Source: a virus (Duplodnaviria; Heunggongvirae; Uroviricota; Caudoviricetes). Taken from it: 64,000 nucleotides of DNA. Below are positions 27,390 to 29,752 of the stretch, piece by piece. The translations under genes and the position numbers were made by a program. Positions within the stretch are counted from its first letter, which is position 1. Each line of letters opens with the position of its first letter. The stretch is taken from the IMG/VR virus record IMGVR_UViG_2875713109_000001; one strand, written 5' to 3'. Below the pieces are notes generated by a model. That model was not told the origin of the DNA. It was given only the letters and a program-made list of their open reading frames with translations, and did no database searches.

Positions 27390-28754
27390 ATGTCTGCATC
27401 CCCTCTTGAATCCATGCCAAATTCCCTTAGTGCAGAACAAGCTGTACTTGGTGGCTTAATGCTTGATAACTGCCGCTGGGATGAAGTTGCAGATCGTATA
27501 GTTGCTGATGATTTTTATACCAGTGCTCATCGTGAAATTTTCAGTGAGATGGAGAGGTTATTAAGTCATGGCAAACCGATTGATTTGATAACACTTGCTG
27601 AAGCACTTGAACAGAACGGTAAATTAGAACGCGCCGGTGGTTTTGCGTACCTTGCGGAGATGTCAAAGAACACGCCCAGCGCGGCAAATATTTGTGCTTA
27701 TGCGGATATCGTTCGTGAACGCGCGGTTGTTCGTGAAATGATTTCCGTCGCAAATGAAATAGCCGAAGCTGGATATGCGCAGGATGGCAGGGGCAGCAAT
27801 GAATTGCTAGATATGGCCGAGCGCCGCGTTTTTGAAATAGCTGAAAAACGACAAAAGAGCGGTAGTGGTCCAAAAGATATCGCCAGCATTCTCGATGCAA
27901 CGGTATCTCGCATAGAAGAGTTGTTTCAGCGACCACATGATGGTGTAACGGGGCTTGATACGGGATTTACCGATCTCAATAAGAAGACGGCAGGGCTTCA
28001 GCCGTCCGATCTCATCATTGTCGCCGCCCGCCCATCTATGGGGAAGACCACGTTTGCGATGAATCTCGTCGAAAATGCCGCAGTTCGTAACGATAAGCCC
28101 GTATTGGTTTTTAGCCTTGAGATGCCGAGCCACCAGCTGATGATGCGCTCACTGGCTTCTCTTGCACGCGTTGATCAGACTCGTATTCGGACAGGGCAAC
28201 TTAACGACGAGGATTGGGCGCGGGTTTCTGGCGCAATGGGTATTCTGTTGGACAAGCAGAATATTTTTATTGATGACTCAAGCGCCCTGACACCTACAGA
28301 GCTTCGTTCCCGCGCTCGTCGTGTTTATAAAGAAAATGGTGGTTTGAGCATGATTATGATCGACTACCTGCAACTTATGCGCGTCCCCGAGCTGCAAGAT
28401 AACCGAACGCTGGAAATTGCCGAGATTTCTCGCTCACTGAAGGCGTTGGCGAAGGAATTACAAGTACCGGTGGTGGCATTGTCACAACTTAATCGATCGC
28501 TTGAACAGCGTGCGGACAAACGACCGGTAAATTCAGATTTACGTGAATCAGGAGCAATTGAGCAGGACGCAGACCTGATCATGTTTCTGTATCGCGACGA
28601 AGTTTATCACCCGGATAGCGAAATGAAGGGCATTGCCGAGGTAATTATCGGAAAGCAACGAAATGGCCCAATTGGCACGGTGAGATTGGCTTTTAACGGC
28701 CAATACTCACGGTTTGATAACTATGCTGGTGCTGACTGGCAAGAGGATTATTAA
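27390..28754 (+). CDS. ban: DnaB-like replicative helicase Ban
   Basis: Near-collinear similarity to E. coli DnaB including Walker A ARPSMGKTTFAMNL and C-terminal blocks; alternative GTG start at 27384. Confidence 0.9.
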   Translation: MSASPLESMPNSLSAEQAVLGGLMLDNCRWDEVADRIVADDFYTSAHREIFSEMERLLSHGKPIDLITLAEALEQNGKLERAGGFAYLAEMSKNTPSAANICAYADIVRERAVVREMISVANEIAEAGYAQDGRGSNELLDMAERRVFEIAEKRQKSGSGPKDIASILDATVSRIEELFQRPHDGVTGLDTGFTDLNKKTAGLQPSDLIIVAARPSMGKTTFAMNLVENAAVRNDKPVLVFSLEMPSHQLMMRSLASLARVDQTRIRTGQLNDEDWARVSGAMGILLDKQNIFIDDSSALTPTELRSRARRVYKENGGLSMIMIDYLQLMRVPELQDNRTLEIAEISRSLKALAKELQVPVVALSQLNRSLEQRADKRPVNSDLRESGAIEQDADLIMFLYRDEVYHPDSEMKGIAEVIIGKQRNGPIGTVRLAFNGQYSRFDNYAGADWQEDY

Positions 28755-28777
28755 TGCAATGGAATGAGGAAAAGCCG

Positions 28778-29752
28778 ATGAACATCCTGATCATTGGGCG
28801 AAAATTTGAAGCTATCAGTGATGTGAAAACATATACGGAAATGTGGGCTTATAACCTGGCCTGCGCCTTTAGTGAGGCAGGGGTAACATTGCAATACCAT
28901 CGTCCATATTCCCCTGGCGTCGAAAGCCCGGAGGATTATGTTGAAGCTGTGTTGACTGCTGCGACCGCATGTTCTGCGAAGGCCATTTTGGCACCAGGAT
29001 TGAGGTATTTTACTACGGTACCCAGGGAAATAGGCATGCAACTGTGTCGCCGATTCTCTGGATGGGTAGCCCAGGTATATGACGGTTCTATGCTGGATTC
29101 GGCACCAGTCGATATTACTTTTACTGTCCGCGATGATACCTGGCGGTACCTGGATAATCCCGGCAGGTTAGAGCGTCATAATCGTTTTAACAAACATGTT
29201 GGATGGGCAGCGAATCAGGAGCTGTTCCATCTGGAAACCAAAACAGACGATATTCTGCGTATTTTTGTAGACCACGCTGCATTTGATGTTAGTGGTTTTG
29301 ATCACTCCTTAAGTATCCTTATGAACCTTCAGCGTCTGACCGTTCCGTATGAGGCCAGAACGTTGACTGATGACGGATTGGTTACCATTGATCCGGGGAA
29401 TATTTCGGTAACTCCATACAGGCGGACGCCGGTGCCAGCAACCGAATTTGCAGCTGAATTGCGTAAGAGTGACGTTTTTATCGTTACGCATCCCGAAAGC
29501 CTTGGATTAACTGTTCTTGAGGCGGCAATGTGTGGAGCGTTGATATTAACTCCGCCCGATTGCCTTCCGCCGGATCGCCTGGAGTTGGTGAACCATATGG
29601 TTATCAAGTCGCGGATTGATTGGGATGAGGTTATTGCTCGCGTTGATCGCGTGAAAAATGCTGAAAAGGTCCAGTGTCACACCTGGTCGGCAATTGCGGA
29701 AAAGATGCTTGAGACGTTTATCACGCAGAAACCGTCGCGCGGTAACGGATAA
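28778..29752 (+). CDS. glycosyltransferase family 1/4-like protein
   Basis: C-terminal ESLGLTVLEAAMCGALIL resembles GT-B EX7E nucleotide-sugar binding motif; ATG at 28778 with SD gagga; ORF-track start 28754 overlaps ban stop. Confidence 0.45.
   Translation: MNILIIGRKFEAISDVKTYTEMWAYNLACAFSEAGVTLQYHRPYSPGVESPEDYVEAVLTAATACSAKAILAPGLRYFTTVPREIGMQLCRRFSGWVAQVYDGSMLDSAPVDITFTVRDDTWRYLDNPGRLERHNRFNKHVGWAANQELFHLETKTDDILRIFVDHAAFDVSGFDHSLSILMNLQRLTVPYEARTLTDDGLVTIDPGNISVTPYRRTPVPATEFAAELRKSDVFIVTHPESLGLTVLEAAMCGALILTPPDCLPPDRLELVNHMVIKSRIDWDEVIARVDRVKNAEKVQCHTWSAIAEKMLETFITQKPSRGNG

Follow-up and report, generated by a model that had tools for sequence, protein, structure and literature searches.

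The window analysed here is a 64,000-nucleotide (nt) stretch of viral DNA from the class Caudoviricetes (IMG/VR record IMGVR_UViG_2875713109_000001), and the gene under study, dbn, is an open reading frame (ORF) on its plus strand that lies directly 3' of ban, a DnaB-like helicase gene of the same operon (27390..28754, +; Pfam DnaB_C 5e-108, DnaB 2.7e-35; likewise annotated in phage P1). In its longest form, taken from the ORF list and the sequence, dbn covers 28754-29752 (332 codons), just as an earlier note based on the letters alone had described it. The details of that note also hold: the stop codon of ban (TAA, 28752-28754) and the first ATG of the ORF (28754-28756) share one base (TAATG), and a second ATG follows 24 nt later, at 28778, with a Shine-Dalgarno-like GAGGA (28766..28770, +) at a 7-nt spacer by direct reading of the sequence. 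The coding sequence preferred here starts at this second ATG (28778..29752, +) and specifies 324 amino acids (aa) plus the stop. A homolog of the baseplate gene 5 is convergent with dbn on the minus strand (29799-30431).

Comparison with the P1 locus, which had been proposed as a check, identifies the gene as P1 dbn within the same ban-dbn-gene 5 order. In megablast searches of phage records it shares 97.8% nt identity with the P1 reference NC_005856 (999/999 bases), 98.1% with the P7 counterpart and 100% with the P1-like records MH422554, MH445380 and MH445381, the range across P1/P7/RCS47-type records being 96-100%. The window allele and P1 dbn differ at ~22/975 positions (~14.5 synonymous, ~7.5 non-synonymous), and the product matches PHROG 2518 (E 2e-239), a family without an assigned function. 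The ORF is thus identified from its sequence as the dbn gene of a P1-like phage-plasmid, while a chance ORF is excluded by the P1-like nt identity, by homologs down to ~25% identity and by a ratio of non-synonymous to synonymous polymorphism (pN/pS) of 0.13. The P1 record names the gene dbn ('downstream of ban'; YP_006544.1, P1_gp078) and describes it as 'function unknown, possible glycosyltransferase', a GenBank label that dates from 2004; the P7 record calls it glt (AAQ07543.1) and states that it 'encodes putative glycosyltransferase', and RCS47 and RefSeq give 'glycosyltransferase family 4 protein', RCS47 also being listed with 'putative glycosyltransferase, Dbn'. The glycosyltransferase prediction has therefore been public in the P1 and P7 GenBank entries for about twenty years, and what is added here is incremental, namely a check of the fold, a refinement of the start codon and a link to the P1 genes pmgO, pmgP and pmgQ.

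The second ATG (28778, 324 aa) is the preferred start of dbn for three reasons. Nearly all homologs begin at the position of this ATG, with M-K/N-I-L-I-I-G; 8 P1-like loci carry an additional ORF of 101 codons between ban and dbn, and their sequence diverges exactly upstream of the 28778-type ATG, before which they have a separate AAGGAG; and the first beta-strand of the Dbn model (residues 10-14, 332-aa numbering) begins directly past it. The annotated starts differ, the P1 record using the first ATG and the P7 record a codon 45 residues in, which would delete the first strand and helix. The inserted ORF (101 aa), present in the subgroup L081-L089 (e.g. L082 7699-8004), takes the place of the 24 nt before the second ATG and has no Pfam match; in L082, ban is split into ORFs of 150 and 326 aa.

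The earlier note had read the gene as a GT-B glycosyltransferase on account of a C-terminal segment resembling the EX7E motif (X, any residue), a reading supported by a GT-B fold in modelling and by conservation of the motif. The Dbn model is confident and compact, and consists of two Rossmann-like domains with a C-terminal helix that crosses back. The motif itself is ESLGLTVLE (residues 248-256; 29495..29521, +) with a glutamate at each end, E248 and E256 in the 332-aa numbering or E240 and E248 in the 324-aa numbering, both of which are invariant among 75 homologs. In these full-length family members (24-58% identity), D173, H174, H246 and G261 are invariant as well. D173-H174 (29270..29275, +) is an Asp-His pair where the first strand of the C-terminal domain ends, a strand that spans residues 168-172 of the model, while His246 (29489..29491, +) stands two residues before the first glutamate of EX7E within the signature T-H-x-E-S-x-G, at a position occupied by Phe or Arg in the aligned GT4 structures; the pair and His246 are each 100% conserved in the family alignment A2. 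The EX7E of Dbn aligns with that of 8xsg and MshA when the family profile is compared with the PDB, and with that of Escherichia coli WaaG in hhalign, the alignment being restricted in both cases to the EX7E region. A single-sequence search of Dbn against PDB sequences gave noise only and no match.

Assignment of the fold by hidden Markov model (HMM) and structure, as the earlier note had suggested, was thus borne out on the side of structure, while the Pfam Glycos_transf_1 match remains below the gathering threshold; a few relatives exceed this threshold (P0102, P0149), and a database listing assigns PF00534 to P0001. Dbn is predicted to be a cytoplasmic GT-B enzyme nearest to the retaining GT4 family, and donor binding would fall to its invariant EX7E helix, as in GT4 enzymes. 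It shares only 10-14% identity with the retaining GT-B enzymes of GT4 / Glycos_transf_1, such as sucrose-phosphate synthase (6kih), BshA (6n1x), PimA (2gej), WaaB (6y6i) and WaaG (8b5s), and differs from them in being shorter (324 aa), in having a reduced C-terminal domain of which Pfam recognises only the last ~90 residues, below threshold, and in the invariants of its own family (D-H after the first C-domain strand and T-H-x-E-S-x-G). As a whole-library HMM search found 372 clusters at 50% identity, the Dbn family is small and distinct. In the Stenotrophomonas jumbo phage RAS14 (L094 5590-7248; also in CM1), the C-terminal half of a 552-aa protein belongs to the Dbn family (26% identity, HMM 1.7e-70), fusion to a class I methyltransferase is seen in P0103, and further members reach lengths of 520-630 aa.

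The P1-like loci that were fetched yield 56 distinct dbn alleles, 55 of them intact, with a pN/pS of 0.13. Of the PLSDB plasmids, 473 carry the gene, 451 of them at >=95% protein identity; a genome-contig scan with dbn returned one P1-like contig and a 209-bp fragment, and three viral-contig scans, two of them seeded with distant homologs, were dominated by P1-like contigs and yielded 4-5 new non-P1 loci. The intact alleles and the low pN/pS show that dbn is kept by selection despite its dispensability in the laboratory, and they bear on the proposal that dbn has lost its catalysis or its function and is left over from a cassette broken up in the P1 lineage. Such a remnant would fit the separation of dbn from its usual partners, the presence of the phosphatase gene ppp in its slot, its non-essential character, the sub-threshold Pfam score and the P1-like Asn in place of a near-invariant Asp. 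The proposal is nevertheless improbable, as purifying selection has kept the gene intact across hundreds of P1-like elements, all invariant residues of the family (EX7E, D-H, H246) are retained, the model is confident and compact, and the Asn variant is also found in non-P1 members of intact cassettes (e.g. P0010 in L092). Dbn is thus very probably an active GT-B glycosyltransferase.

The neighbourhoods of Dbn homologs in other phages, searched with profile HMMs, link the gene to a set of further glycosyltransferase-like genes. In at least ten unrelated phages (the non-P1 loci L003, L004, L092, L093, L096, L097/L101, L098, L099, L100 and L102) the Dbn homolog is directly followed by a homolog of PmgQ, its most constant neighbour, and in four of the ten (L003, L004, L092 and L093) PmgO and PmgP homologs are adjacent as well. 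These sets, in metagenomic and isolate phages alike, are compact with overlapping genes, and the order in L003, L092, L004 and the E. coli phage EP_H11 is MptE-like A, MptE-like B, in some cases a small GT-A-like protein, Dbn and a ~210-aa protein. A ~190-aa family with a D-x-D-like motif and weak similarity to Nucleotid_trans (E 0.019) accompanies the cassette in certain phages (L003 7435-8004, L251 7254-7835); the P1-like window has no copy of it. In large phages the Dbn-Q pair is joined by genes for GT8, polysaccharide pyruvyl-transferase, cytidylyl-transferase/cupin and methyltransferase proteins. A 95-kb Citrobacter element (L090) carries P and Q 5 kb from Dbn; in this element and a related contig (L090/L091; CP101055), the Dbn homolog is preceded by two conserved proteins, one ~210-230 aa long and bearing a weak TRASH-like zinc motif, the other ~170 aa long, and a regulator of the Rrf2 type comes after it.

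Sets of O-P-Q or P-Q are also found without Dbn (L250-L252): between the lysis genes and the terminase gene in a lambdoid prophage of the Citrobacter rodentium type (L250), as O-P-Q-X directly after the major capsid gene in a Pseudomonas HK97-like prophage (L251 5433-7835), and as P-Q between the head-tail connector and head-closure genes in an Ochrobactrum HK97-like prophage (L252 7001-8213); in both HK97-like prophages the insertion stands inside the head module, ahead of the head-closure gene. Since such sets lack it, Dbn appears to be an optional addition to a core of P and Q. One Dbn homolog is clearly cellular; it lies in a kps-type capsule locus of Colwellia (KpsMT / Poly_export / KdsA), beside a WaaZ-like protein. 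In three separate assemblies of Colwellia metagenome contigs (L005 7698-8702, L006 3934-4938 and L007) this homolog is divided into an N-terminal part of 63 aa and a part of 233 aa, which may reflect a pseudogene, a frameshift or recoding.

The window encodes homologs of PmgO, PmgP and PmgQ together, as found by tblastn and HMM; the cassette neighbours match it at 35750-36283, 36247-36858 and 37544-38209 (E 1e-37 to 1e-64), which correspond to pmgO, pmgP and pmgQ. pmgO (35687..36349, +) is predicted to encode a Maf/Cst-like (MptE-like) protein, with 39% identity to L003 6352-6891 in tblastn, an HMM match, a sub-threshold Pfam MptE-like match, assignment to PHROG 4603 ('alpha-2,3-sialyltransferase') and the P1 annotation. 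Its paralog pmgP (36247..36873, +) is predicted to specify a Maf / MptE / Cst-I-like fold; the PmgP model is Maf/Cst-like at a predicted local distance difference test score of 93.7, and the PmgP family, with 328 matches, is larger than the Dbn family. ppp (36855..37547, +; Pfam Metallophos 1.3e-15; P1 annotation) encodes a lambda-type Ser/Thr phosphatase, overlaps both pmgP and pmgQ, and fills the slot held by dbn in the contiguous cassettes of other phages. pmgQ (37544..38245, +; PHROG 1962, 'glycosyltransferase') is a putative GT8-like GT-A glycosyltransferase gene by comparison of its profile with GT8 structures, the family profile giving E 1.1e-7 for AgtA (6mw5), ~1e-3 for glycogenin and a weaker match to LgtC. 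The PmgQ family has the invariant motifs DxD, GDQ and H-G-x-P-R-P, the last of which resembles the GT8 signature H-x-x-G-x-x-K-P-W.

Sequence comparison and modelling thus assign glycosyltransferase-like types to the three partners. The relatives of PmgO and PmgP, and not of Dbn, are the Maf flagellin glycosyltransferase, the sialyltransferases Cst-I and Cst-II (GT42) and WaaZ, from which the two differ in being single-domain proteins of ~200 aa with sub-threshold matches to Pfam MptE-like. In E. coli K-12, the only sugar activated with cytidine monophosphate (CMP) is, to our knowledge, CMP-Kdo. The pmgQ gene of the window is not adjacent to dbn but lies 7.8 kb downstream of it, and the P1 set is split, pmgO-pmgP-ppp-pmgQ lying 6 kb from dbn across baseplate and tail genes. 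With these genes 6 kb away in the window, dbn does not stand as an orphan; it appears to have been displaced from a glycosylation set of four genes.

A bivalent C1 operator (Oban / Op72; 24387..24414), formed by two overlapping matches to the C1 consensus at the position of Obanab in the P1 record, stands at the head of a tRNA-ban-dbn operon; the window holds 15 matches to this consensus, where 0.37 would be expected. It is followed by tRNA-Asn, tRNA-Thr, an accessory module, a tRNA with a CAT anticodon, ban, dbn and a hairpin (29773..29799) between the convergent dbn and gene 5. The hairpin, with an 11-bp stem (-17.6 kcal/mol, z -4.06 relative to shuffles) flanked by an A-run and a T-run, is a likely bidirectional terminator that closes the ban operon, and dbn is accordingly placed by these features as the last gene of a C1-repressed operon of mixed cargo. 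The earlier note had called a sugar transferase co-transcribed with replication genes unexpected; dbn does share the operon of ban, but adjacency to a helicase gene does not itself imply a role in replication. The P2dbn promoter annotated in P1 (28117-28144) was found by a promoter scan, in which one site against 4.0 expected is no evidence.

The accessory module of the window (25956-27000, +), between tRNA-Thr and the CAT tRNA, comprises two genes, a membrane-like ORF of 78 aa and one for a lipoprotein of 275 aa that has an SPFH/Band_7 domain (Pfam 1e-30); the equivalent region of reference P1 holds plp/upl on the opposite strand and tciA/B/C, a swap of cargo in a C1-controlled operon. ARAGORN assigns the tRNA at 27028-27103 (+) to tRNA-Met (CAT), and the P1 record to tRNA-Ile2 (ileX-like, with CAT read as Ile after lysidine modification).

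Adjacency to a replicative helicase gene would be accounted for if Dbn glycosylated phage DNA, like the alpha- and beta-glucosyltransferases of phage T4, which are also GT-B enzymes. This is very improbable, as such pathways centre on a thymidylate-synthase-like (ThyS-like) hydroxymethylase or a 5mYOX/TET enzyme, and neither is present among the Pfam-annotated neighbours at 12 homolog loci or in the annotation of the P1 regions read; dbn and its homologs thus differ from the T4 case in having no accompanying hydroxymethyl-base pathway in the loci examined. In structure comparison of Dbn, moreover, GT4 transferases acting on lipids, sugars and proteins outscore the DNA enzymes and are the closer relatives. 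Ordinary restriction enzymes cleave P1 DNA, which is not known to be hypermodified. Glycosylation of queuosine in the co-transcribed tRNA-Asn was considered as well, the eukaryotic QTMAN being a GT4-family enzyme, and was set aside, as nothing was found in its support and the conserved linkage with PmgQ and PmgP argues for a multi-step glycan.

A second C1 operator (O26 / Op82; 34623..34639, -; 2 mismatches) lies in the divergent 26 / pmgL promoter region, 5' of pmgL-pmgQ, where O26 and the late promoter LPpmgL are annotated in P1, so that pmgL-pmgQ stand behind a late promoter. As both P1 units, dbn and pmgO-Q, are downstream of C1 operators, both should be derepressed at the start of lytic growth. 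The core of the set would be formed by the Maf/Cst-like PmgP and the GT8-like GT-A enzyme PmgQ, to which PmgO as a second Maf/Cst-like protein, Dbn and another small GT-A-like protein would be variable additions. The donors would be nucleotide sugars of the host, because the P1 set is without genes for sugar-nucleotide synthesis, and Dbn would add one sugar to the glycan assembled by the set. The identity of the gene, its fold, the conservation of its motifs, purifying selection and gene linkage are supported by prediction or sequence analysis, and it is from these that we infer catalytic activity, joint action with PmgO/P/Q, donor and acceptor.

Several points weigh against this proposal. We know of no report of a glycosylated P1 virion protein or of a P1-dependent change in lipopolysaccharide (LPS). 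On Dbn, Pfam Glycos_transf_1 reaches 23.9 bits, short of the 26.4 cut-off, with a match confined to residues 229-315, and a search of Dbn with NCBIfam gave one irrelevant weak match and nothing useful. The Arg/Lys pair that contacts the donor diphosphate in GT4 was not located, EX7E being the only part aligned by sequence; the conserved basic residues of the family (R84, R202 and R224) lie away from the end of the first C-domain strand, where the Asp-His pair may, judged from its position, stand in place of the Gly-Arg/Lys phosphate region of GT4. As the Arg/Lys would then be replaced by Asp-His, the donor chemistry of Dbn may differ from that of GT4. The P1-like Dbn has Asn154 (332-aa numbering; 29213-29215), within the motif G-W-A-A-D, where 92% of the family has Asp, although Asn is also present in a few non-P1 members of intact cassettes. 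In P1, dbn stands apart from the genes proposed to work with it, and some O-P-Q cassettes have no Dbn, so that a joint function of Dbn and PmgO/P/Q in P1 is one suggested by other genomes. The literature on the function of dbn and pmgO/P/Q consists of gene lists, one essentiality screen and one mention in a transcriptome, with no biochemical or genetic phenotype for dbn; the gene is non-essential by CRISPR interference (PMC10695390), and 24/29 single-gene knockouts of P1 showed no defect in plaquing or anti-restriction (PMC9024508). Even so, the explanation of dbn as a cytoplasmic GT-B enzyme and an optional module of a phage glycosylation set is the probable one, and it is likewise somewhat probable that Dbn and PmgO/P/Q work together on one glycan, with nucleotide sugars of the host as donors.

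For the acceptor, the best candidate is a virion protein made by the phage, a tentative choice favoured by the placement of the cassettes in late or head modules and by the Maf-like partner. Glycosylation sets that act on virions are found in mycobacteriophages (capsid and tail tube) and chloroviruses (capsid). The Dbn set resembles these in comprising several virus-encoded glycosyltransferases, sometimes with methyltransferases, in being dispensable for plaques and in the position of P-Q cassettes inside head or late modules; a chlorovirus glycosyltransferase (3oy2) and one of Tupanvirus are structural relatives of Dbn. It differs from them in protein families and hosts.

Alternatively, Dbn and PmgO/P/Q may remodel a glycolipid of the host envelope, most plausibly the LPS core, which is the P1 receptor, so that phage would no longer adsorb to infected cells or debris, or the envelope would be altered ahead of lysis. 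This alternative concerns the acceptor only, Dbn being a glycosyltransferase in either case. All three enzyme types have parallels in core synthesis of E. coli (WaaG/WaaB, WaaO/WaaJ and WaaZ), the Colwellia homolog of Dbn lies in a capsule locus, and the cassette is spread across unrelated virion types. However, the similarities to WaaG (P 0.009), WaaO (0.018) and WaaZ (9e-4) are weak, both P1 units are repressed by C1 and hence are not classical lysogenic-conversion genes, new LPS would replace little of the surface in a one-hour lytic cycle, and the site of P-Q between capsid and connector genes is unusual for accessory genes that modify the envelope. An envelope acceptor is therefore rather unlikely; an acceptor of some other kind is less likely again, and that Dbn has no activity at all is more doubtful still.

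The four P1 genes dbn, pmgO, pmgP and pmgQ are of unknown function, and three of them are labelled 'putative morphogenetic'. Seen as one cassette, which is contiguous in other phages and often lies in late or head-gene modules, they are brought under one testable hypothesis. In its fullest form, which we consider possible though on the unlikely side, a modular and previously unrecognised system in P1 and many temperate phages would decorate virion proteins, so that P1 particles would be glycosylated with one specific sugar added by Dbn, or, as a variant, the same set would remodel the LPS core receptor. If P1 virions are indeed glycosylated, this would extend to an enterobacterial phage a phenomenon documented mainly in mycobacteriophages and giant viruses, with possible relevance to phage immunogenicity and host range.

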